Source: a virus (lineage: Duplodnaviria; Heunggongvirae; Uroviricota; Caudoviricetes). Taken from it: 21,842 bases of DNA. The stretch's first letter is position 1; each line of letters opens with the position of its first letter. The stretch lies in IMG/VR virus record IMGVR_UViG_2531839433_000003. One strand, given 5' to 3'. Positions 1 through 18,768 of this stretch are shown piece by piece. The translations under genes were made by a program, and so were the position numbers. A model generated the notes under the pieces. The model was not told where the DNA came from, ran no database searches, and saw only the letters and a list, made by a program, of their open reading frames with translations.

Positions 1-1053
1 TTACGGGGTAATGCCAACCGCTGCCGCCACTTTGTCGCCACTTGGCAATGTTGCCAGAGGATTGAAACGGAGCGCCGTTTCCAGATGATCCGGTGCCAGA
101 TGTGCGTAACGCATAGTCATTTTTATATCGTGGTGTCCGAGAATTTTTTGTAAGGCCAGGATGTTTCCACCCGACATCATGAAGTGCGCCGCAAACGTAT
201 GGCGCAGAACGTGTGTCAGTTGACCGCGAGGGAGCACGATAGACGTTTTTTCCATCACGGATAAAAATTGAAAATAGCAGTCTGTGAAGAAATTGAACCC
301 ATCAAGCGCCATGATCTCTTCGTAAAGCTCTTTACTGATAGGGATGCTTCTGTTTTTCTTCCCCTTCGTTCTTACAAAGGTAATTCGGTATTTGGTCACT
401 TGCGAGCGGGTAAGATTTATTGCTTCTCGCCAGCGTGCGTCTGTGCTTAGGCATATCTTGACTACCAGTGCCAGAATTGGGTCCTGACGTTTGCAATCAG
501 CCAGCAGTTCAACAATCTGCTCATGGGTAAGCCATGCCATTTCTTTTTCTGCGATGGTGAATTTTCGCATGTTCTCCAGTGGGTTCGGATACGACCATTC
601 GCCCAGGCGGGATAGTTCGCTAAAAACACTACTTAGATAGCTTTGCTCCAGGTTAATGGTGACCGGGCTTGCTCCTTTCTTCCATTTCTCGCTGAAGTAG
701 ATCTCTCCTGTCAGGCGTTTATCTCTATAGTGGGCAAACATTTTAGAGGTGAGATCGGTTGCAAGGGGATTGCCCAGAGCGTCAACCATCAACAGCAGTT
801 TGTCATAGACATGCTGCCCAGCTGTCAGAGATTTACCATGTAGTTTGAACCATAGCTCAACCACGTCTTTCAATGTCCGACGATCCACTGGTTCGCCCAG
901 CCAGGGCTTTGCTTCGGTTTCTTCCATCGTGTGACGCTCAAAAGCCAGAGCTTCGCCTTTAGTGGCGAATTGTTTACGCACACGACGCCCACTACGTCCG
1001 GCGGGGTAACATTCGCAAAGCCATTTCCCTGTGGTGAGTTTTCGTACTGCCAT
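1..1053 (-). CDS. int: Tyrosine integrase, P2/186 family; the last 13 codons are encoded by the att core plus host flank
   Basis: 350 aa ORF whose translation resembles P2 Int along its length, including the C-terminal catalytic region (LTHVLRHTFAAHF...GHHDIKMTMRYAHL). Sits at the prophage left end, transcribed toward the att repeat. Confidence 0.88.
   Translation of the reverse strand: MAVRKLTTGKWLCECYPAGRSGRRVRKQFATKGEALAFERHTMEETEAKPWLGEPVDRRTLKDVVELWFKLHGKSLTAGQHVYDKLLLMVDALGNPLATDLTSKMFAHYRDKRLTGEIYFSEKWKKGASPVTINLEQSYLSSVFSELSRLGEWSYPNPLENMRKFTIAEKEMAWLTHEQIVELLADCKRQDPILALVVKICLSTDARWREAINLTRSQVTKYRITFVRTKGKKNRSIPISKELYEEIMALDGFNFFTDCYFQFLSVMEKTSIVLPRGQLTHVLRHTFAAHFMMSGGNILALQKILGHHDIKMTMRYAHLAPDHLETALRFNPLATLPSGDKVAAAVGITP
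19..40. repeat. attL core: 22-bp direct repeat cgctgccgccactttgtcgcca, matching 18988..19009 with one mismatch
   Basis: Read directly: identical at 21 of 22 positions to 18988..19009. One copy lies inside the int 3' end, the other immediately after the ogr stop, which is where a P2-type att lies. Confidence 0.7.
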
Positions 1054-1058
1054 AAAGA

Positions 1059-1078
1059 AGCCCTCATATCAGAGGGCT
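1059..1078 (-). terminator. Stem-loop between the HEPN gene and int; possible attenuator or weak terminator
   Basis: 7-bp perfect inverted repeat agccctc / gagggct with a 6-nt loop. On the minus strand it is followed by a partly T-rich tract and overlaps the int ribosome-binding site. Confidence 0.3.
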
Positions 1079-1141
1079 AAATTTAACTGTGCTTATATAC
1101 AGTGGTCAATGTATGATTTCATTAAAACAGACAAGGGTGTG

Positions 1142-1777
1142 CTATAAATCTGCTCTTAAATTATTTTCAGGGTCATTAGCGATATTTCTTTGTGAATTAT
1201 TAACTAAATCAGAAAATGTATTATCTCGGTCGTTAGATTTAGTTAATCCAATATTCGTATTTGTCGCTTCTAATTCAAGTATTGATGACTCCATCTTCTG
1301 AATAATGGCTACACTATCTATAAAATAGTCGAAAATATATTGAAATGATACTGTGGGGCTTTTCCCATGAGCGAAATCATTTCTGGCTCTATTTAAAGAT
1401 TTCAACGAATCACGTAATTTATTTGAATGCGGATCGTTCTTGATTTTGTCCTTAAAGTTGTTACACCAGTTATTATCAAATGAACCAAGTGCCTTACAAA
1501 TATTATCGTAATTAGGGTTCATTGAACTATTTCTGAATTTTTCATCAATGAATCTTTGTATTTGTTCACTATGTTGATCATATTTATGATCGCTAATGAT
1601 TGTTTTGAAAGAATATTCAATGGTTCCGCAGGTTCTAATAATTGAATATCGTGTTAAATATTTAACAATAGTTGTAGTGGGGCCAGAAGATTCTATCATC
1701 TTCTCTATACTCTCAAGTTCCTTTAAACAATCTATAATGCTATTTTTAGCATTATTATTAACGATATTGAATGCCAT
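1142..1777 (-). CDS. HEPN-motif protein (R-x4-6-H), predicted RNase effector; resembles the MAE_28990/MAE_18760-type HEPN family
   Basis: Motif LNRARNDFAHGKS (RNxxxHG) in the C-terminal third of an AT-rich ORF. GGAG lies 7 nt upstream of the ATG at 1777; the ORF track's longer start at 1810 has no ribosome-binding site. Overlaps the DUF262 gene by 20 nt. Confidence 0.55.
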   Translation of the reverse strand: MAFNIVNNNAKNSIIDCLKELESIEKMIESSGPTTTIVKYLTRYSIIRTCGTIEYSFKTIISDHKYDQHSEQIQRFIDEKFRNSSMNPNYDNICKALGSFDNNWCNNFKDKIKNDPHSNKLRDSLKSLNRARNDFAHGKSPTVSFQYIFDYFIDSVAIIQKMESSILELEATNTNIGLTKSNDRDNTFSDLVNNSQRNIANDPENNLRADL

Positions 1778-2912
1778 AAAGAAACTCCAGTGCCATTGAA
1801 ATTCTTCCATGTATATTTTCTATCTGCATTGTACCAGATGTGATATGTGACCGAAATGTCTGATTTTGTAGTAACTCATTTCTTTTATGCTCTAGATCGT
1901 TAGTGTTTATATCTTCACCTGAATTTAATGCAATGGATGTTGCGACATATAATGCATCAAAAATGGTTGGATAAAAACGACGACGTATACGTGATGGATC
2001 TGATTGGATTATATTAAAGAATGCATCTGGTCCTATATTATCATGAATAAAATTAATGGTGTTTTCAAAATCGGTTTTAATGGTGTCGATCATGTCAGAG
2101 GTGTTATTTGCTTTATCACCCATATATTCATTAAGGAGTTTTTTTAGCGAAATATTTGCTGGTTCATGACTCTTTATTTTCTGCGTGTTAAGAGCCAAGC
2201 CTCTTAGAATGAATTCCATATCTCTCATTCGTGCATCTGGTTTATTAGAACCGAATAAAGTACGCCATTTGATATTATTGTTTAGTTCTATCAATAGAGT
2301 ATTTAATTTCCCTTGATATACGCAATTACGTATTTCTTGAGCCATTAGTGAACGTCCACCAGTATTTATACGCTCAAAAATTTGATATAGGCTAGTATCA
2401 TCGTTCGACGGAACGGTTTGCTCAAAGATTATAGCGTGTATAGTTGTTGAGCGAATTTTCTTTTTTTCTGAAACTGTAAGTTCATTAAAGGCCTTACCAC
2501 GCCATTTTGCATTAATTTTTCTACTATCGGAAAGTTTAAAGACTCTACTATCTTTTGACCATATACCTGTCACATAATCATAGACAGTCATGATTCTCTG
2601 AAAACCATCTATAATGAGTTTGTTTTCGTCAGACGTATTTGCTAAAAAAATACTCGGAACAGGAAGACCTAGCAATAATGAGTCTATAAATCTACTGGCT
2701 TCGACTTTATCCCAAACATAATTTCTTTGAAGTTCTGGTTTCTGAAGTTCGCCCTCATCATACATTGTAATAAGTTCTCTAAAAGATAAATCGGCCCCCC
2801 ATGAGTTTATATTGTATAAATCATCATTTGAGTAAGAATCGTTCTGTTCTTCTTCGATTATCTCTATTGTGTCCTCAAGAGAATTATTATTGATATAATT
2901 GCTGTCAGTCAT
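1758..2912 (-). CDS. DUF262 protein (ParB-like / GmrS N-terminal NTP-binding domain), no fused HNH/DUF1524 domain
   Basis: Motifs PELQRNYVW and IIDGFQR (the DGQQR-type motif) near the N-terminus. Start chosen at MTDSNY (ATG 2910..2912), which has GAGG 5 nt upstream and sits 1 nt after the CI-like stop codon. Confidence 0.72.
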   Translation of the reverse strand: MTDSNYINNNSLEDTIEIIEEEQNDSYSNDDLYNINSWGADLSFRELITMYDEGELQKPELQRNYVWDKVEASRFIDSLLLGLPVPSIFLANTSDENKLIIDGFQRIMTVYDYVTGIWSKDSRVFKLSDSRKINAKWRGKAFNELTVSEKKKIRSTTIHAIIFEQTVPSNDDTSLYQIFERINTGGRSLMAQEIRNCVYQGKLNTLLIELNNNIKWRTLFGSNKPDARMRDMEFILRGLALNTQKIKSHEPANISLKKLLNEYMGDKANNTSDMIDTIKTDFENTINFIHDNIGPDAFFNIIQSDPSRIRRRFYPTIFDALYVATSIALNSGEDINTNDLEHKRNELLQNQTFRSHITSGTMQIENIHGRISMALEFLYGIQYR

Positions 2913-2913
2913 T

Positions 2914-3864
2914 TTAACCTCTAACATTATTAATGGATAATACGATCTTTGCAATAAATTCGATTTCGTTTATTGAACATTCAAAAACTATGTTTTTATT
3001 TTTTACTTGAATTTTTTCATTAGGTAATTTAGTGATTGTTCGAATACTGATATCTCCATCAATACCAACGATCCACTCGCCATCTATAATATTATTGAAT
3101 CTTTTTTCACAAATGTAAAAGTTATTTACATTTTCAATCAAACAAGGAAATATCGTATTTTCAGGTAACAGATTTTTATCAAATATCGAGTTCCCGCTCT
3201 CAATTAATTTTGCATTATTTAGAGTAAACTTTGGTATATTTATACAGTTTAAACTGCTATTTTTTTCTATTTTATCTCCTTTCCCAAAGGCTAACCACGT
3301 GATGGATACTCCTGTTTCGATAGCACACTGAATTACCCAATCAGCAGGAAAAGTATCACGCATATATCGTGTGGCTAACGTGCTTTTTGAAATACCAAGG
3401 TGATCAGCTAAGGCTTGACGTGTCTTGTAACCGTAAGCTTCAACAATTCGTTCTATTACTGCTTTTCCTCCATGAGTGAAATTCATGTGGATTTCATTAT
3501 CGAACAGAGTGGGGGAAGAGTGAACTTTGTCGCAAAGTCCATCTTCGGTTTGTTTTTCAGCATGTTGTTCTAGTGAAGAAGATGACATTCTTTCTTTAAC
3601 ACCTGAACCAAATGCTAGCCATTCAATTGATGCGCCTGTCTCCATCGAGCAGATAACAACCCAATCTGCTGGAAATGTATCGCGGGCATATCTGTTAGCC
3701 ATCGTGCTTTGGGAAATACCTAGGTGATTACAGAATGCCTGGCGTGACTTGAAGCCATAAGCCATGAGGATCCGCTCAATTACTTTCTGACCACCGCGAT
3801 TCTGTATGACAGCGGCTTTCATATCGTCATTCATATGGCGAAATGTGAATTTTTGAGTTGACAT
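2914..3864 (-). CDS. CI-like repressor with two tandem Phage_CI_repr-type HTH domains and an AT-rich C-terminal domain
   Basis: Two internally repeated segments (around residues 14-88 and 120-195) share the pattern ERI..AYG.K.RQA...HLGIS.ST.A.RY.RDTFPADWV..C..ETG.S..WLAFG.G, which resembles the phage 186 CI N-terminal domain. Divergent from the Apl-like gene, in the cI position. Confidence 0.65.
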   Translation of the reverse strand: MSTQKFTFRHMNDDMKAAVIQNRGGQKVIERILMAYGFKSRQAFCNHLGISQSTMANRYARDTFPADWVVICSMETGASIEWLAFGSGVKERMSSSSLEQHAEKQTEDGLCDKVHSSPTLFDNEIHMNFTHGGKAVIERIVEAYGYKTRQALADHLGISKSTLATRYMRDTFPADWVIQCAIETGVSITWLAFGKGDKIEKNSSLNCINIPKFTLNNAKLIESGNSIFDKNLLPENTIFPCLIENVNNFYICEKRFNNIIDGEWIVGIDGDISIRTITKLPNEKIQVKNKNIVFECSINEIEFIAKIVLSINNVRG

Positions 3865-5757: not shown

Positions 5758-6611
5758 GCACCATCCTGAAATGGGCGGGAAATAAAACCGCCATTATGTC
5801 CGAACTGAAAAAACACCTTCCTGCTGGCCCGCGACTGGTTGAACCTTTCGCGGGTTCCTGTGCTGTGATGATGGAGACGGATTACCCCAGCTATCTGGTT
5901 GCGGATATTAATCCTGATTTAATCAACCTCTATAAAAAGGTTGCTGCTGATTGTGAATCGTTTATATCTCGCGCCAGAGTTTTATTTGAGATCGCAAACA
6001 GGGAGGTGGCTTATTACAACATAAGGCAGGAGTTTAATTACTCCACTGAAATTACTGATTTCATGAAAGCGGTATATTTCCTGTATCTCAATCGTCACGG
6101 TTACCGTGGTTTATGTCGCTATAACAAGAGCGGGCATTTCAACATTCCCTACGGTAATTATAAAAATCCGTATTTCCCTGAAAAAGAAATTCGCGCATTT
6201 GCAGAAAAGGCCCAGCGAGCAACGTTTATCTGCGCCAGCTTTGATGAAACGCTGGCGATGTTGAAGGCGGGGGATGTGGTGTATTGCGATCCGCCGTATG
6301 ACGGTAAGTTTTCCGGCTATCACACTGATGGTTTCACTGAAGATGACCAGTATCACCTGGCATCTGTTCTTGAACATCGGTCATCAGAAGGACATCCGGT
6401 CATTGTTTCTAACAGTGACACATCCCTGATCCGTTCGCTGTATCGCAATTTTACTCACCACTACATCAAGGCAAAACGCAGCATCGGTGTGGCAGCTGGC
6501 GAGGGTAAATCAGCAACAGAAATCATTGCTGTTTCCGGGCCGCGCTGCTGGGTGGGATTTGATTATTCGCGTGGCGTGGATAGTTCTGCCGTGTACGGAG
6601 TACGTGCATGA
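5754..6611 (+). CDS. dam: DNA adenine methyltransferase, Dam-like (GATC N6-adenine)
   Basis: N-terminal LKWAGNK SAM-binding motif and DPPY catalytic motif (DNA 6288..6299); collinear resemblance to E. coli Dam. Translationally coupled on both sides. Confidence 0.85.
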
Positions 6612-9022
6612 GCCATGCCGATATGAACAACTGCTGCGGCTTTAACGAGGCTGCCGCATCGTTCTCATGGAACAGCCCGAAAAAGGCCATTAACCCTTAT
6701 CTGGACCCGGCGGAAGTTGCGCCGGTTTCTGCGCTTTCAAACCTGATCACTCTGTACGCTGCCGATAACGAGCAGGAACAGCTGCGCCGCGAGGCACTGA
6801 GTGATCAGGTCTGGGAGCGTTATTTCTTTAATGAATCCCGTGATCCTGTCCAGCGCGAAATGGAGCAGGATAAGCTCATTAGTCGGGCAAAGCTGGCGCA
6901 TGAGCAGCAGCGTTTTAATCCAGATATGGTCATTCTGGCGGACGTCAATGCCCAGCCTTCCCATATCAGCAAGCCGCTGATGCAACGTATTGAATACTTC
7001 AGCAGCCTTGGCAGGCCAAAGGCTTATTCCCGCTATTTGCGTGAGACGATTAAGCCATGTCTGGAACGGCTGGAGCATGTACGCGACAGTCAGCTATCCA
7101 CTTCTTTTCGCTTTATGGCAAGCCATGAAGGGCTGGACGGCCTGCTGATTCTGCCTGAAATGAGTCAGGATCAGGTGAAACGCCTGTCCACCCTTGTTGC
7201 TGCGCATATGAGCATGTGCCTTGATGCAGCTTGTGGCGATTTGTATGCCACCGATGACGTTAAGCCTGAAGAAATCCGCAAGACATGGGAAAAGGTGACA
7301 GCAGAAACCCTGCGACTGGATGTCATACCGCCTGCGTTTGAGCAACTCCGCCGGAAAAGAAACCGCCGTAAACCCGTGCCTTATGAACTCATTCCGGGTT
7401 CGCTGGCGCGTATGTTGTGCGCCGACTGGTGGTACCGGAAATTATGGAAGATGCGTTGCGAATGGCGGGAAGAGCAGTTGCGTGCTGTTTGCCTGGTCAG
7501 CAAAAAAGCATCTCCCTATGTCAGCTATGAAGCCGTGATGCATAAACGTGAGCAGCGCCGTAAGTCGCTGGAGTTTTTCCGTTCTCATGAACTGGTGAAC
7601 GAAGACGGCGACACGCTGGACATGGAGGATGTGGTAAACGCCAGCAGCAGCAACCCTGCGCATCGCCGCAATGAGATGATGGCCTGTGTTAAAGGTCTGG
7701 AGCTTATCGCGGAAATGCGTGGTGACTGCGCCGTTTTCTACACCATCACCTGTCCGTCACGTTTCCATTCCACGCTAAATAACGGCAGGCCCAACCCGAC
7801 CTGGACAAATACGACGGTAAGACAAAGCAGTGATTATCTGGTCGGCATGTTTGCTGCATTTCGTAAGGCGATGCACAAAGCCGGATTGCGCTGGTATGGC
7901 GTGCGGGTGGCTGAGCCGCATCATGACGGTACAGTTCACTGGCACCTGTTGTGTTTTATGCGCAAAAAAGATCGCCGCGCCATTACTGCTTTGTTGCGTA
8001 AGTTTGCCATTCGTGAAGACCGCGAGGAGCTGGGTAATAACACGGGACCACGCTTTAAGTCTGAGCTGATAAACCCGCGCAAAGGTACGCCAACAAGCTA
8101 CATCGCGAAATACATCAGTAAGAACATTGACGGGCGTGGTCTGGCTGGCGAGATCAGCAAGGAAACGGGTAAATCCCTGCGTGATAACGCTGAATACGTT
8201 AATGCCTGGGCGTCTCTGCATCGTGTTCAGCAATTCCGCTTCTTTGGCATTCCGGGGCGTCAGGCTTACCGTGAACTGCGATTGCTGGCTGGTCAGGCGG
8301 CAAGGCAACAGGGGGACAAAAAAGCAGGTGCGCCGGTACTGGATAACCCGCGCCTTGATGCAATCCTGGCTGCTGCTGATGCTGGTTGTTTTGCCACCTA
8401 CATCATGAAGCAGGGCGGCGTACTGGTTCCCCGCAAATATCACCTCATCAGAACTGCTTATGAAATCAACGAAGAACCGACCGCATATGGCGATCACGGT
8501 ATTCGTATTTATGGCATCTGGTCACCCATTGCAGAGGGCAAGATCTGCACTCATGCGGTGAAGTGGAAAATGGTTCGTAAGGCCGTTGACGTTCAGGAGG
8601 CGGCAGCCGACCAGGGCGCTTGCGCCCCTTGGACTCGTGGCAATAACTGTCCCCTTGCTGAAAATTTGAGCCAACAAGGGAACGACAAATCAGCTGATGG
8701 GGATACCAGAACGGACATTACCCGCATGGATGACAAGGAGTTGCACGATTACCTGCACAGTATGAGCAAAAAAGAGCGCCGGGAACTGGCTGCAAGGTTA
8801 CGCCAGGTGAAACCGAAACGGCGTAAAGACTACAAACAGCGAATTACAAACCATCAGCGACAGCAGCTCGTCTATGAACTGAAGTCCAGAGGATTTGATG
8901 GCAGCGAGAAAGAAGTCGATTTACTCCTTCGCGGCGGCAGTATTCCGTCAGGAGCAGGCCTGCGTATCTTCTATCGGAACCAGCGTTTGCAGGAAGATGA
9001 TAAGTGGCGGGAGCTGTATTAA
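6608..9022 (+). CDS. Rolling-circle replication initiator, P2 gpA / 186 RepA family
   Basis: 804 aa with the metal-binding HWHLL motif (7936..7950) and active-site tyrosine motif YIAKYISK (8099..8122). Start overlaps the dam stop. Confidence 0.85.
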
Positions 9023-9116
9023 TTACGCGGGTTAACAATTCGTGCTCTTAATAATACCAGGTATATCAGGCTGATGAACGTAAAAAAACGTTTTACATCA
9101 GTAAGATTATTATATA

Positions 9117-9132
9117 CTGTAAATATAAACAG
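9117..9132. promoter_or_regulatory. LexA box, CTGT-N8-ACAG (ctgtaaatataaacag)
   Basis: Matches the SOS-box core; lies about 45 nt upstream of the 9175 ORF, inside an AT-rich promoter-like region. Confidence 0.5.
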
Positions 9133-9174
9133 TGATTATATATACAGTATTGTTTTGGTGTCATAGGAGGAAAG

Positions 9175-9363
9175 ATGCAGGACTATTTTTTGGAGTCTTT
9201 GAAGCTCCAGCGCATTGATTTTTTTCTTAAGCTTGTAGCGGCTAGTGAGTGTAGTGATGAAGAGAAGGGGCTGGCTCTGCAGTGGGTTTCTGAGTTGACT
9301 GATGAACTCATGGCAAAAATCAGAACTCACGAATACAACCGCTCAATGGACGTCATCAGTTGA
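9175..9363 (+). CDS. Small protein, 62 aa, first gene of a putative SOS-controlled Tum-like module
   Basis: Strong AGGAGG ribosome-binding site 7 nt upstream of the ATG, downstream of the LexA box. Confidence 0.5.
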   Translation: MQDYFLESLKLQRIDFFLKLVAASECSDEEKGLALQWVSELTDELMAKIRTHEYNRSMDVIS

Positions 9364-9373
9364 GGTGACTTTT

Positions 9374-9607
9374 ATGCGCATTGAAATAATGATCGATAAA
9401 GAGCAGAAGATTAGCCAGTCTACCCTGGACGCCCTTGAATCAGAGCTTTACCGCAATCTGCGCCCCCTGTATCCCAAAACGGTAATTCGCATCCGCAAAG
9501 GTAGCTCTAACGGTGTGGAACTGACCGGACTGCAACTGGACGAAGAAAGAAAACAAGTGATGAAAATTATGCAGAAGGTGTGGGAAGACGACAGCTGGCT
9601 GCATTAA
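9374..9607 (+). CDS. DinI-family protein (186 Tum-like C-terminal domain)
   Basis: 77 aa beginning MRIEIMIDKEQ and ending KVWEDDSWLH, which parallels E. coli DinI (MRIEVTIAK...ETWESADDWF). GAGGTGA ribosome-binding site. Confidence 0.65.
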   Translation: MRIEIMIDKEQKISQSTLDALESELYRNLRPLYPKTVIRIRKGSSNGVELTGLQLDEERKQVMKIMQKVWEDDSWLH

Positions 9608-9766
9608 GAAAAGTTGCTGGCGTCTGAACTTGGTTCTGGCGTCAGCAAGGTTGAACAACGAGTACAGTGAGGCGTTAGGTGTGGCGTTTATTTGATGAGT
9701 GAACGCCCGTTCTGCGACAGGTTCGGAGATTAAGGTTGAAACTACGGGCAAAATACCATCTTTTTC

Positions 9767-10192
9767 CTACTTAATTGAGTCCAGTAACAAGTTACAGTTA
9801 CTCTCATTGTAGAGAGAACGAGCAATTAGTGTTACCTGCTTTCCATTTATTCCCGGCTTATCCCATAACACAGCTTCTTGCGACGCCACAAATTCAGCAT
9901 AATCAATTATGCGTTGTTCGTGATCTGGTTCCTCATAGCCAAAGTATGAGAGCGCATCGTTGTAAGCGTGGTAAGCTGCTTTCTGTAATATCTTGATATC
10001 GGCTGTAGGTACTTGCCCCGTGTAGCTAGGATCTAATTGTGTGCTACTGCCATAGAATGCACATGAAAGGTAAGATATTGATTTCTGTTGAGCTTTAGTT
10101 CCTTTCTCATAGTTTTTAGCTGTTACCGCCTGAACTGGGACGCTAACAAAGCTTGCAACCAGAATTAAAATTAATACGTAAAAGCTTTTCAT
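9767..10192 (-). CDS. Secreted/periplasmic protein of unknown function, 141 aa, Sec-type signal peptide
   Basis: N-terminus MKSFYVLILILVASFVSVPVQA followed by a polar mature region; GAGG 5 nt upstream. AT-rich, leftward, at the position and orientation P2 uses for old. Confidence 0.6.
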   Translation of the reverse strand: MKSFYVLILILVASFVSVPVQAVTAKNYEKGTKAQQKSISYLSCAFYGSSTQLDPSYTGQVPTADIKILQKAAYHAYNDALSYFGYEEPDHEQRIIDYAEFVASQEAVLWDKPGINGKQVTLIARSLYNESNCNLLLDSIK

Positions 10193-10780: not shown

Positions 10781-11380
10781 TTGTCCGAAAATGACATTAA
10801 AGTAGTCGCCTTTAATGTCGTAAGCATGAAGGACAGAGAATTGAACTTAGAGCAGATTGCCAGTCAAAGTATAAGTAACCTTCAGTTTCTCCTCGATACT
10901 TTGAAGATGCCGTTGGCTGTTGGTCCAATCAGTGATGAAGACTATGTGATCCTGACCACAGGATATGCTCAGCTAGAATGGGATTATGGTTTTTCTCGGT
11001 TTGGCAATCGAAGTGATAAGTTTGAATTTTGTTTGAAGCTCCTTGCGGGGCCACTTAGGCATATCCCTTCTGGCGCAGCTATGTGCACCTTTGACGAGGA
11101 CGCTGGAGTCATAGAGATCCATTTTGTGGAATCTTTTGTGAAAGATGATGACGTAGAGCACCCTCTTTACGGCAACATGTTCATGGTTACATTGTGGGCG
11201 GTATATCTTTTTGGTAGCGCGGTTGGGTGTCAAGAGATTCGGATCCCTGAAGCCCTGAATCAAAAAGTTGCTGACCACTATAAAAAATTTGGTTTTAAAG
11301 GTGATATAAGCTTGCTTTCGGCACCTTTTGCTACAATAACTGATGTAGTAAGACGCTACATTACTTCTAAGAAACAGTAG
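10781..11380 (+). CDS. Hypothetical protein, 199 aa from the TTG at 10781 (184 aa if the ATG at 10826 is used)
   Basis: Long ORF in the AT-rich region between cos and the portal gene; start codon uncertain and no clear ribosome-binding site. No family recognised. Confidence 0.45.
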   Translation: MSENDIKVVAFNVVSMKDRELNLEQIASQSISNLQFLLDTLKMPLAVGPISDEDYVILTTGYAQLEWDYGFSRFGNRSDKFEFCLKLLAGPLRHIPSGAAMCTFDEDAGVIEIHFVESFVKDDDVEHPLYGNMFMVTLWAVYLFGSAVGCQEIRIPEALNQKVADHYKKFGFKGDISLLSAPFATITDVVRRYITSKKQ

Positions 11381-11845: not shown

Positions 11846-13417
11846 TTACTGAGAGCTCAGATCAACTTTCCAGGGCAACAGATCGCGTACCCGGTTTGCC
11901 GGCCAGTCCTGGATATGTTCAATGACGTAGCGCAGCCACTTTTCTGGCTCCACATTGTTCAGACGGCATGTGCCGATCAGCGAGTACAACACCGCCGCAT
12001 GTTCACCACCGCTGTCGGAACCCGCGAACATCCACTTTTTCCGGCCTACGGCCACTCCCCGTAAGGCGTTCTCTGCGATGTTGTTGTCGATTTCCACCCA
12101 GCCATTACTGCAGTACACGTTCAGTGCATCCCACTGTTTCAGCAGGTATGCGAACGCTTTTGCCGTATCTGAGTGACGCGACAGTGTTTTCATCTGTTGC
12201 TGTATCCAGTCATACAGTGACTGCATCAGTGGCGCGGCTCTGGTTTTTCTTGCCGCCAGACGCTGTTCTGCTGAACAGCCCCGGACCTCTGCCTCGATGG
12301 CATACAGTTCACCGATACGCTGCAGGGCTTCCGTGGTGATGTCGGTGGGCGCTCTTGCATGCACATCGTGGATTTTTCTCCGGGCATGAGCCATACACGC
12401 GGCTTCCGTTATTCTGCCGGATTCGTATAACGCCCGGTAACCACCGTAAGCATCGGCCTGAAGCACACCGCTGTAACCGGCCAGGTGATTTTGTGGATGG
12501 ATACCTTTCCGGTCCGGACTGTACGCGAACCAGACCGCCGGGGGCATCTGTGAACCGGCGTTACGGTCATCACGGACGTAGACCCACAGCCGGGCTGTCC
12601 GGGTTTTACCGCTGCCCGGCTCCTGGACCGGGACGGGGATATCATCAGCATGGACTTTACCGGGCATCAGCACATACTGGCGCAGGACGTCATACAGCGG
12701 CTCCAGTAGTTCAGCAACGGCACCTGTCCAGCGCCCCAGTGTGGCACGGCTCAGCTCCACACCCTGACGGCGGTATATCTCTGACTGGCGGTATAACGGC
12801 AGATGGTCTGCATATTTTCCGGTGACGACATGGGCCAGGAGCCCCGCTCCGGCATAACTGCGTGCAATGGGTTTTGAAGGTACTGGTGCCTGCACGATAT
12901 GGTCGCACCGACAACAGGCCAGTTTCGGACGTTGTGTTTCGATAACCTTAAAGGCGCTGCTGATAAGCTCCAGTTGCTCTGACACATCACATCCCAGAGA
13001 ACTGAGTTCACCACCACAGGCAGGACAGCATTCCTCTTCCGGCCGGATAACCCGGGTTTCACGGGGAAGTGAGGCCGGTAACGGTTTACGGGCTGAAGAC
13101 TGGCGCAGGGCGGATGGCAGTACCGGGTCATATTGCTCACCCAGCGTTTCCGCCATTTCTTCCTGAAGTGCGCTGATTCGCTCCTGTGCTTCCTGTATCT
13201 GCCGTTCGGTTTTTGCACGAAGTTTTTCTGAGCTTTTACCGAACTGCATACGTTGCAGTTTCGCAACCAGCGCCTTCAGCCGGTTGATTTCGGAAGCATA
13301 AGCCGCCACCCGCTGTGAGAGCAGGCGGTTGTATTCAGCCATCTGGCGTATGGTGTCCTGTTGCGTCTGCAACAGTGCCCGCAGGCGGGCGTTCTCATGA
13401 GCAAGTGAGGTGTCCAT
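11846..13417 (-). CDS. tnpC: IS66-family transposase (TnpC)
   Basis: 523 aa with an N-terminal coiled-coil/leucine-zipper region and a Cys-rich segment, as in IS66-family TnpC. Confidence 0.85.
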
Positions 13418-13436
13418 ATCCTCACTTTACAACGGG

Positions 13437-13784
13437 TTATATGCGGATTCCAGCGCGTTCCGTTCGTTTCGGGTGCTTCCAGTTGATACCTTCAAGAAGC
13501 ATGGATAACTGAGCCGGAGTAAGGTGCACCTTGCCGTCACGGGTGACTGGCCAGACGAAGCGGCCCCGCTCCAGGCGTTTGGTGAAGAGGCACAGTCCGT
13601 CACTGTCAGCCCACAACACTTTTATCTGGTCACCCCGGCGTCCGCGGAAGATGAACAGGTGTCCGGAGAACGGGTCATCCTTCAGGACGTTCTGAACTTT
13701 TGATGCCAGGCCGTTAAAGCCATTTCGCATATCGGTGATACCTGCAACCAGCCAGATACGCGAACCTGCAGGGAGAGATATCAT
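13437..13784 (-). CDS. tnpB: IS66-family accessory protein TnpB (Orf2)
   Basis: 115 aa, MISLPAGSRIWLVAGITDMR..., as in IS66 Orf2; ATGA overlap with the upstream ORF. Confidence 0.8.
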   Translation of the reverse strand: MISLPAGSRIWLVAGITDMRNGFNGLASKVQNVLKDDPFSGHLFIFRGRRGDQIKVLWADSDGLCLFTKRLERGRFVWPVTRDGKVHLTPAQLSMLLEGINWKHPKRTERAGIRI

Positions 13785-14461
13785 CAGTGGCTGCTCCCTT
13801 TTATTTCGCGGATAAGTGTCTGTAATAACGCCGGCGTCAGTTTACCTTTAAGCCTGAGAGTTCCGGCCGGCAGAACCAGCTCACAACACAGACTGTCGGA
13901 CGGTGTATTTATCTGCTCTGGTTCCTGTGCGGGGGCCGGGATTTTATTATCCGGCTCCGGCGTTAACGTCACGGGAAGCAGTGCCGGCATATTTTTTCCG
14001 GAAGGCAGCAGGCCACCTTTCCGGTATTGATGGCGCCAGTTGAAGAGCAGGTTATCGTTGATTCCGTTTTCCCGGGCGATCTGCGCCACACAGGCTCCGG
14101 GCTGCAGTGACTGCTCCACTAAGGCGATTTTAAACTCATAAGGGAAGTTGGGCCGCCGGGGACGTTTTTTTACCACGGGGGCTTCGGATATAACGGTGCT
14201 TTCAGGACGTACGACTGGTACCGTGGAAAATTGTCCGTAAAGGCAGGCATCAAGTTCCTGCTCCGACATGCCTGCGGGCAAAGGCCACGAAAGGCCAGCT
14301 CTCCGAAAGCGCACGAACATACTACAAACTGTTGATTTTGGTACACCCAGGCGACGCCCGGCCACAACCCGGGGTAAATGTTCTTCAAAGTGAAGACGTA
14401 AAGCTTCAGTGATCCAGGTCCGGTGTTTCATACGATAGTGTCCATTAAAAATGATGGACAT
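13784..14461 (-). CDS. tnpA: IS66-family accessory protein TnpA (Orf1); start uncertain
   Basis: First ORF inside the IS, leftward, coupled to tnpB. The true start may be the internal Met (MKHRTW...). Confidence 0.6.
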   Translation of the reverse strand: MSIIFNGHYRMKHRTWITEALRLHFEEHLPRVVAGRRLGVPKSTVCSMFVRFRRAGLSWPLPAGMSEQELDACLYGQFSTVPVVRPESTVISEAPVVKKRPRRPNFPYEFKIALVEQSLQPGACVAQIARENGINDNLLFNWRHQYRKGGLLPSGKNMPALLPVTLTPEPDNKIPAPAQEPEQINTPSDSLCCELVLPAGTLRLKGKLTPALLQTLIREIKGSSH

Positions 14462-18194: not shown

Positions 18195-18572
18195 ATGAAG
18201 AAGAATACCCGCTTTGCTTTTAACGCTTACCTGCAGCAGCTGGCGCGTCTGAACGGTGTGGCAGTTGAAGAACTGTCCAGCAAGTTCACCGTGGAGCCGT
18301 CTGTGCAGCAGACGCTGGAAGACCAGATCCAGCAGTCCGCCGCTTTCCTGACGCTGATTAACGTCACGCCAGTGACTGAGCAGTCCGGTCAGCTGCTGGG
18401 GCTGGGAGTTGGCAGCACCATTGCCGGAACCACTGACACCACCGCGAAAGAGCGTGAACCTGTCGATCCGACGCTGATGGTCGATGTGGAATATAAATGC
18501 GAGCAGACCAACTTTGACACGGTGCTGACCTACGCGAAGCTGGACCTGTGGACGGGGTGGGCTCTTAGATGA
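18195..18572 (+). pseudogene. Major capsid protein (P2 gpN type), N-terminal about 125 aa only
   Basis: Begins MKKNTRFAFNAYLQQLARLNG...KFTVEPSVQQTL like P2 gpN, but terminates after 125 aa where about 357 are expected. Confidence 0.7.
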
Positions 18573-18573
18573 T

Positions 18574-18678
18574 GCGGAATGGACCATTACGACTCTGACG
18601 CATACCGTCAGCCCCGATAACGGTTTTACAACCAGTCTGGAGCTTGAAGTGAGGATTGATGATTTCGAAATGGAATGA
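18574..18678 (+). pseudogene. Possible C-terminal remnant of tail gene D fused out of frame to the capsid fragment
   Basis: The +1 frame reads ...TITTLTHTVSPDNGFTTSLELEVRIDDFEME then stop, about 90 nt upstream of ogr, where D lies in P2. Assignment is by position and frame only. Confidence 0.3.
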
Positions 18679-18768
18679 TTCTTCGCAATGGAGAACTTTT
18701 AAGTTTGCAAAATGGAATAATGCGGTATCATTATTGTGAATTTAGCAAAAATGGGGAGAACTCGAAAA

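Follow-up and report, generated by a model that had tools for sequence, protein, structure and literature searches.

The DNA segment examined here very probably contains the SOS operon of a 186-like prophage of the Fels-2/PSP3 type, in which the tum gene takes a split form, tumA-tumB. LexA binding, the interaction between TumA and the CI repressor, and induction are attributed to it on the strength of previous work on 186, PSP3 and Fels-2. Since both the split tum and the mechanism of Tum action are already in the literature, the finding amounts to the correct recognition of a known module, the SOS switch already described for P2-like phages of the Fels-2/PSP3 type, and its mechanism is not new. 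The present analysis adds the double LexA operator, the occurrence of TumA without a DinI gene in some phages, the association of an identical TumA with divergent CIs, and the presence of the module in 21% of complete E. coli genomes.

The window, i.e. the whole stretch of 21,842 nucleotides under analysis, corresponds to positions 4582383-4604224 of the chromosome of E. coli strain 504239 (NZ_CP025859.1), with 0 mismatches over 21,842 bases. It contains a 186-like (Peduoviridae) prophage remnant, located between rcdA and ybjL, whose main features are reported in Table 1. After cI, the gene order is apl/cox, cII, fil, DUF5347, DUF2732, a TraR/DksA-like gene, dam and replication gene A; the tum module begins 70 nt past gene A, and the same layout is found in 186, PSP3 and Fels-2. 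The Apl/Cox and CII genes accompany a CI of the 186 type, which is not LexA-like. On the 3' side of the module lie two cargo genes, a split portal gene, terminase, scaffold, a capsid/D fusion and ogr. An earlier note on this DNA had held that the element is unable to make particles, and the lesions agree with this: the IS66-family element ISCro1 interrupts the portal gene, and a deletion has removed the capsid-to-D region, a truncated capsid gene being fused to a truncated gene D. RefSeq lists the immunity, early and replication genes as intact, among them cI (under the name 'phage repressor protein CI'), apl, cII and A.

Table 1. Features of the prophage remnant and of its tum module (window coordinates)
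Feature	Position	Strand	Remarks
int	1-1053	-	
HEPN RiboL-PSP gene and GmrSD_N gene	1142-2954	-	
cI	2914..3864	-	186-type immunity repressor; two tandem Phage_CI_repr and Phage_CI_C; presumed TumA target
Replication gene A (gpA)	6608-9022		PF05840, E 4.9e-126
Promoter, p95 equivalent	9092..9120	+	-35 TTTACA 9092-9097, 17-nt spacer, -10 TACTGT 9115-9120
LexA box 1	9115..9134	.	Core 9117-9132; overlaps -10; 3 mismatches to TACTGTATATATATACAGTA
LexA box 2	9130..9149	.	Core GTG-N10-CAG 9132-9147; 4 mismatches to 20-mer consensus
Shine-Dalgarno of tumA	9165..9170	+	AGGAGG, 4 nt before ATG
tumA (ORF1)	9175..9363	+	Presumed antirepressor of 62 aa; homologous to Fels-2 STM2728, to PSP3 TumA and to the N-terminal part of 186 Tum
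Shine-Dalgarno of tumB	9362..9367	+	GAGGTG; overlaps tumA stop TGA 9361-9363
tumB (ORF2)	9374..9607	+	77-aa DinI-family protein
Strong hairpin after tumB	9614..9648	.	RNA fold; stem 11 + 4 pairs

The same note had pointed to a CTGT-N8-ACAG motif within an AT-rich promoter region, and both elements were recovered. GC content falls to 0.29 across 9050-9199, versus about 0.5 on either side. The motif, CTGTAAATATAAACAG, which forms the core of LexA box 1, follows a pattern matched three times in the window, versus 0.26 expected, and none of 100 shuffles gave three matches. Once extended to a 20-mer, TACTGTAAATATAAACAGTG, it is the only site of the window that departs from the LexA consensus TACTGTATATATATACAGTA at no more than 3 positions, where 0.00 are expected. 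The third match of the CTGT-N8-ACAG pattern, at 12263, lies inside the IS66 transposase gene, differs from the 20-mer consensus at 11 positions and was taken as due to chance.

Box 1 overlaps the -10 hexamer of a promoter whose two hexamers align with those annotated for 186 p95, TTCACA and TACTGT. The pattern TTTACA-N17-TACTGT has a single match in the window (0.00 expected), and TTTACA is found exactly 17 nt 5' of TACTGT in the window and in all 8 Fels-2-type relatives fetched, despite differing spacer sequences. Alignment of the upstream regions of seven phages (the window, Fels-2, PSP3, 186, ESSI2_ev015, vB_YenM_06.16-2 and ESSI-2) left TACTGT...ACAGT as the sole long invariant block, between flanks which barely align; in 186 this block is annotated as the LexA site, and the left half of the block as the -10 of p95. 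A scan for the sigma-70 consensus did not call the tum promoter on the plus strand, because its -10, TACTGT, matches the consensus at 3 out of 6 bases. An antisense sigma-70 site at 9164..9135, with 11 matches out of 12, is not conserved in SopEPhi, SEN8 or the Klebsiella relatives, and was not retained.

A second LexA-like box, GTGATTATATATACAG, absent from the earlier note, shares one base with box 1; its left half is GTG, not CTG. The two boxes make up a double operator, CTG-N10-CAGTG-N10-CAG at 9117-9147, formed by two 16-bp cores with one G in common, for which 0.01 occurrences are expected per window. The other match to this pattern, at 12724, is GC-rich, falls inside the IS66 transposase gene and looks like chance. 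The double-box pattern is present in 7 out of the 8 Fels-2-type relatives fetched, the exception being SEN8, which has CAGTAG at that position; in the upstream alignment, 186, PSP3 and the ESSI-2/Yersinia lineages have a single LexA box.

The same arrangement, again with boxes sharing one base, characterizes the colicin E1 (cea) promoter of plasmid ColE1 (GCTGTATATAAAACCAGTGGTTATATGTACAGTAT; L014, 5063-5093). Box 2 of ColE1 is letter for letter that of Fels-2 (GTGGTTATATGTACAGTAT), from which box 2 of the window differs at 2 positions. The predicted operator of the window drives a phage antirepressor, however, and not a colicin. Colicin operators are bound by two LexA dimers, with tight or late induction (PMC2994835). 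By analogy with ColE1, box 2 would be occupied by LexA as well, and the tum operator should repress very tightly and fire only when the SOS signal is strong or lasting; a tight, late-firing operator of this kind would suit the trigger of prophage induction. Elsewhere in the window, a conserved LexA-like box was observed at 1087-1102, in a promoter preceding int, on the minus strand at 1054-1141.

The assignment of ORF2, tumB, to the DinI family, which had also been proposed, is borne out by the match to PF06183, with an E value of 6.6e-23 and 81 bits versus a cut-off of 24 (residues 14-76 on profile positions 1-63 of 63). The 101-aa ORF listed at 9302-9607 is a mechanical upstream extension of tumB, and nothing more. 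TumB matches the E. coli DinI structure 1ghh end to end (residues 1-75, E 2.7e-6) and keeps the acidic C-terminal motif WEDDSW. It scores 42.7 bits versus the NCBIfam equivalog cut-off of 111 for chromosomal DinI and, being under this cut-off, is a phage paralogue rather than DinI itself. TumB is 41% identical to residues 71-145 of 186 Tum (E 3e-24), its first residue aligning with the internal GTG from which 186 makes a 77-aa 'truncated Tum'; identity is 78% with PSP3 TumB and 100% with the DinI-family gene of Fels-2.

The kinship of both ORFs with 186 Tum, suspected from the start, is seen at the BLASTP level for ORF2; for ORF1, tumA, BLASTP against 186 Tum gave no alignment, and the relationship emerged from profiles. 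Searches with ORF1 matched no family in Pfam and NCBIfam, and no sequence in PDB. Among PHROGs, ORF1 matches phrog_698 (E 3.6e-38), phrog_8554 (2.4e-8) and phrog_1993 (2.2e-3), and residues 7-44 of 186 Tum match the same three, at 2.4e-5, 1.4e-11 and 1e-22, respectively. When a profile of 11 Fels-2-type proteins was compared by hhalign with one built from the 186 Tum N-terminus, PSP3 TumA and a Yersinia 'tum protein', a probability of 94.7% was obtained (E 5.8e-8, residues 6-42 versus 6-42); the window TumA is just 14-18% identical to PSP3 TumA and to the 186 Tum N-terminus. Judged by these profile matches, ORF1 is a homologue of the N-terminal, non-DinI part of Tum, or TumA. Within its own type the protein shows 98.4% identity to Fels-2 STM2728, and many phages of Klebsiella and E. 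coli carry it unchanged, at 100% identity. AlphaFold models TumA as a two-helix hairpin (helices 2-23 and 28-61, pLDDT 90.5), for which Foldseek retrieved from PDB generic helical hairpins only, with a best E of 1.3. The ribosome-binding signal before this ORF, already described as strong, is an AGGAGG kept in all relatives compared. The homology of both ORFs to Tum, together with the location after gene A in an element provided with a 186-type CI, Apl/Cox and CII, supports the Tum-like SOS antirepressor logic that the note had attributed to the locus.

The two ORFs had been seen to lie in different frames, and either two genes or one frameshifted tum had been envisaged. The different frames are real (offset 1, with a 10-nt spacer); the first of the two options stands, while the second does not. 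tumA and tumB are two separate genes under strong purifying selection: among relatives, dN/dS is 0.01-0.12 for ORF1 and 0.02-0.10 for ORF2, with pairwise dS up to about 1 to 2.7. The distance from the ORF1 stop to the ORF2 start is 10-13 nt in 8 relatives, which places ORF2 in relative frame 0, 1 or 2 according to the phage, and a purine-rich Shine-Dalgarno sequence precedes the second ATG in every relative, despite the variable spacer. No DinI domain was found in the best 120 of 484 database homologues of ORF1, all 55-109 aa long. One continuous ORF of the 186 Tum type is absent from the window, where the stop at 9361-9363, the spacer and the frame change intervene.

That the two ORFs might, in principle, be halves of one 186-type tum, either disrupted by a recent frameshift (a pseudogene) or joined by programmed +1 frameshifting, is suggested by the different frames, by the degraded state of the rest of the element, and by the DinI frame being open back to 9302, where a +1 shift within about 9302-9360 would produce a protein of about 143 aa, versus the 146 aa of 186 Tum. 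We regard this as extremely improbable. The same layout of stop, spacer, Shine-Dalgarno and ATG is also found in Fels-2, SopEPhi, SEN8, Cartapus and Klebsiella and Yersinia phages, phage isolates included, and, as both spacer and relative frame differ between relatives, no fixed frameshift could be required. Moreover, the last 15-20 residues of ORF1, which lie 3' of any putative shift site, are conserved as protein, at the dN/dS reported above, and the best 120 ORF1 homologues lack a DinI fusion. The PSP3 record, too, annotates two genes, tumA, 'similar to 5' end 186 tum; UV induction of prophage', and tumB, 'similar to dinI and 3' end of 186 tum'.

As to the role of the two genes, Tum has been reported to resemble a fusion of an antirepressor and DinI, and to be split in two in Fels-2 and PSP3 (Lemire et al. 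2011, PMC3121763); in the part of that paper bearing on the split gene, which cites Bunny et al. 2002, the upstream gene is indicated as the antirepressor. DinI is the sole recognizable domain in the module, RefSeq and PHROGs name the DinI-like gene only, and a DinI part is also present in 186 Tum. TumB could accordingly be thought of as the derepression effector, or the module as merely modulating the host SOS response via RecA, with ORF1 as an unrelated leader or accessory protein. Both versions appear very unlikely, ORF1 being homologous to the non-DinI part of Tum. Furthermore, the antirepressor activity of PSP3 maps to the upstream gene, according to a personal communication cited second-hand in PMC3121763, and induction of Gifsy prophages is unaffected by non-polar dinI deletions (PMC3121763). 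In ESSI-2, ESSI2_ev015 and vB_YenM_06.16-2, a LexA box and a TumA-like ORF are present, and no DinI-like sequence was found within the 1.5-kb flanks fetched. The existence of three phage lineages with a TumA-like ORF and no DinI gene nearby points to TumA as the constant element of the module, and to TumB as an accessory one.

The phages which share a 100% identical TumA (Kp4860-7, ST11-OXA245phi3.1, 813R9, Cartapus, Kp4845-2 and Kp4865-2) feature CIs just 39-61% identical to that of the window. In the five CIs aligned by domain (all but Kp4845-2), identity to the window CI is 55-79% for the HTH and 27-38% for the C-terminal domain; the compared CIs carry one HTH domain in some phages and two in others. 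As the same TumA is found along with divergent CIs, a cognate TumA-CI pairing has to be assumed for this mosaic element. The lack of co-variation between TumA and CI is the sole part of the locus not obviously covered by the literature reviewed; these sequence comparisons suggest that either TumA is broadly specific, via the conserved HTH domain, or some mosaics hold mismatched pairs.

If the window itself had such a mismatched pair, the module would be SOS-inducible but orphaned, its TumA being mismatched to its own CI by mosaic recombination: DNA damage would not be followed by derepression, and any action of TumA would be in trans, on other prophages. Besides the presence of a 100% identical TumA next to CIs 39-61% identical to the window's, this is made conceivable by the distance of about 5 kb between tum and cI, which are free to recombine independently. 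We consider it quite unlikely, however, as the association of an identical TumA with varied CIs fits equally well a TumA of broad specificity, recognizing the conserved HTH domain, and the module is under purifying selection in every one of those phages, its retention suggesting that it functions with each CI.

The broad-specificity idea may be carried further, by supposing that the Fels-2-type TumA is an antirepressor acting on the HTH of many 186-type CIs, and the remnant a domesticated SOS-triggered switch; we put this forward tentatively, as a possible but doubtful reading. If it were true, the tumA of the remnant could induce in trans P2-like prophages of different immunity types, whether co-resident or incoming, the colicin-type double LexA operator could restrict firing to severe damage, and the LexA-like box before int would put excision under SOS control too.

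Comparison with known systems places the module close to well-described ones. Fels-2 of Salmonella LT2 (STM2728 / STM2726.1) shares with the window the position after gene A, the promoter, the double LexA operator and, at the identities given above, both proteins; it differs in that its downstream gene, STM2726, is replaced in the window by a convergent cargo gene. PSP3 has the same two-gene organization after gene A and a similar TumB, but its TumA, about 14% identical to the window's, is of another sequence type, its LexA box is single, and its genes lie in the same frame, with a stop plus one codon between them, versus the other frame and the 10-nt spacer of the window. Unlike both Fels-2 and PSP3, the window carrier is a defective remnant.

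Phage 186 features a LexA-repressed promoter with the -10 TACTGT within the LexA box, also located after gene A, an N-terminal antirepressor part and a C-terminal DinI-like part, and an extra 77-aa DinI-like product, made from an internal GTG which aligns exactly with the TumB start. In contrast to the window, its Tum is one 146-aa fusion protein, its LexA box is single, and the identity of the N-terminal part to the window protein is too low for BLASTP. For orf97, located downstream of tum in 186, neither the window nor the Fels-2 locus has a homologue. A similar logic is found in the Gifsy and Fels-1 prophages (GfoA, GftA and FsoA), where a LexA-repressed operon encodes a small antirepressor and a DinI homologue, and a non-cleavable repressor is inactivated by binding (PMC3121763); in these lambdoid phages, however, dinI comes first, and antirepressors and repressors are unrelated to those of the window.

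Downstream of tumB, the 75-nt segment holding the hairpin has an MFE of -23.2 kcal/mol. The hairpin is followed by GGTTGAAC on the plus strand and by CTTTTCTT on the minus strand; since a T-run is found on the minus strand only, it is mainly the terminator of the convergent gene at 9767-10192; the tum transcript would meet in it a weak stop at best.

For the split tum module as an SOS switch, the following course of events is proposed. In the uninduced state LexA, probably as two dimers, would sit on the overlapping boxes, which cover the -10 and the start region, and both genes would be silent. Upon DNA damage, RecA-stimulated self-cleavage of LexA would free the promoter, and tumA-tumB would be transcribed. 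TumA would then reversibly bind the 186-type CI, keeping it off its operators, and the early rightward operon (apl, cII, fil, dam and A) would be turned on. TumB, translated from its own ribosome-binding site, would probably modulate RecA filaments, and hence the SOS signal, while being dispensable for derepression. In 186, Tum is made from the LexA-regulated p95 promoter and sequesters CI reversibly, and repression returns once the SOS signal decays (PMC7708051). With its late genes destroyed, the remnant would have early-gene expression, possibly with excision and replication, as its only outcome, and no particles would be made.

Out of 5,426 complete E. coli genomes, 1,125 (21%) carry the module (window 9060-9610), mostly at 95-99% identity, and it is annotated there as 'hypothetical protein' plus 'DinI-like family protein'. 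The label attached to TumA in E. coli genomes is sometimes "levan regulatory protein", instead of "hypothetical protein". This marks an annotation gap: PSP3 and Fels-2 have made the role of TumA known, yet neither Pfam nor NCBIfam provides a model for it. In Salmonella, lexA null mutations are lethal, an effect put down to the Fels-2 prophage in the title of Bunny et al. 2002, and Fels-2 has the same module as the window. By analogy with these phages, the defective E. coli prophage most likely still answers DNA damage by expressing its early genes, a response which can affect the fitness of the host.

Phages whose TumA, the presumed antirepressor, is 100% identical to that of the window carry 186-type CI repressors only 39-61% identical to the window's. 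The latter (cI, 2914-3864, minus strand) is a protein of 316 aa, made of two tandem Phage_CI_repr HTH domains followed by a C-terminal domain; compared with it, the CIs of the same-TumA phages show 55-79% identity in the HTH domain but 27-38% in the C-terminal domain. Kp4860-7 and ST11-OXA245phi3.1 share the two-HTH arrangement, whereas 186, Cartapus and 813R9 feature a CI with a single HTH domain. At the level of these comparisons, the putative antirepressor does not vary in step with CI, its presumed target. TumA itself (9175-9363) matches no model in Pfam or NCBIfam; public records name it "hypothetical protein" or, in some instances, "levan regulatory protein", a label which looks like a propagated misnomer.

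As to tumB, the DinI-like partner of tumA, in Escherichia phage 500465-1 (4682-5013 of the fetched locus) the DinI-like gene loses frame past the fourth codon. The CDS annotated there uses an ATG farther downstream and differs at its C-terminus, owing either to a sequencing error or to a true tumB pseudogene.

A strong promoter-like match, directed at gene A, falls on the minus strand within the tum operator/leader. Its -35 is missing from SopEPhi, SEN8 and the Klebsiella relatives, and the match is, for this reason, probably a by-product of AT-rich palindromes.

The remnant also contains cargo genes (see table below). The HEPN RiboL-PSP and GmrSD_N/DUF262 pair, recognized by Pfam, looks like an anti-phage defence cassette in the known P2-like cargo position. 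Two further genes, neither of which is matched by Pfam, fill the variable region from the tum module to the portal gene, the latter being interrupted by the IS66-family element ISCro1. The truncated capsid gene abuts a fragment of gene D, indicating that tail and lysis genes have been deleted, while ogr is retained.

Features of the window, with coordinates and strand
Feature	Coordinates	Strand	Remarks
Hairpin	1057-1078		3' of the LexA-like box on the minus strand; 3' arm includes the int Shine-Dalgarno
LexA-like box, CTGTGCTTATATACAG	1087-1102		a further perfect CTGT-N8-ACAG besides the tum box; between HEPN gene and int
HEPN RiboL-PSP (222 aa) and GmrSD_N/DUF262 (398 aa) proteins	1142-2954	-	between cI and int
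Promoter-like match ATGACA-18-TATAAT	9135-9164	-	11/12
Cargo gene, phrog_7437	9767-10192	-	signal-peptide-like N-terminus
Cargo gene, phrog_4350	10781-11380	+	
ISCro1 (tnpA, tnpB, transposase)	11846-14461		within portal gene
Region of shortened capsid gene and gene D fragment	18195-18680		the two adjoin

The LexA-like box preceding the integrase gene, when read on the minus strand, takes up the 17 nt between TTGACC and TTAAAT of a promoter-like sequence (region 1054-1141), and the hairpin in the leader directly precedes the int ATG (1053). Phages 813R9 and 4LV2017 retain CTG-N10-CAG, TTGA and the hairpin, the latter with a different sequence. Taken together, the location of the box in the promoter spacer, the int-leader hairpin and their retention in these two phages suggest that the int promoter may be under SOS control.
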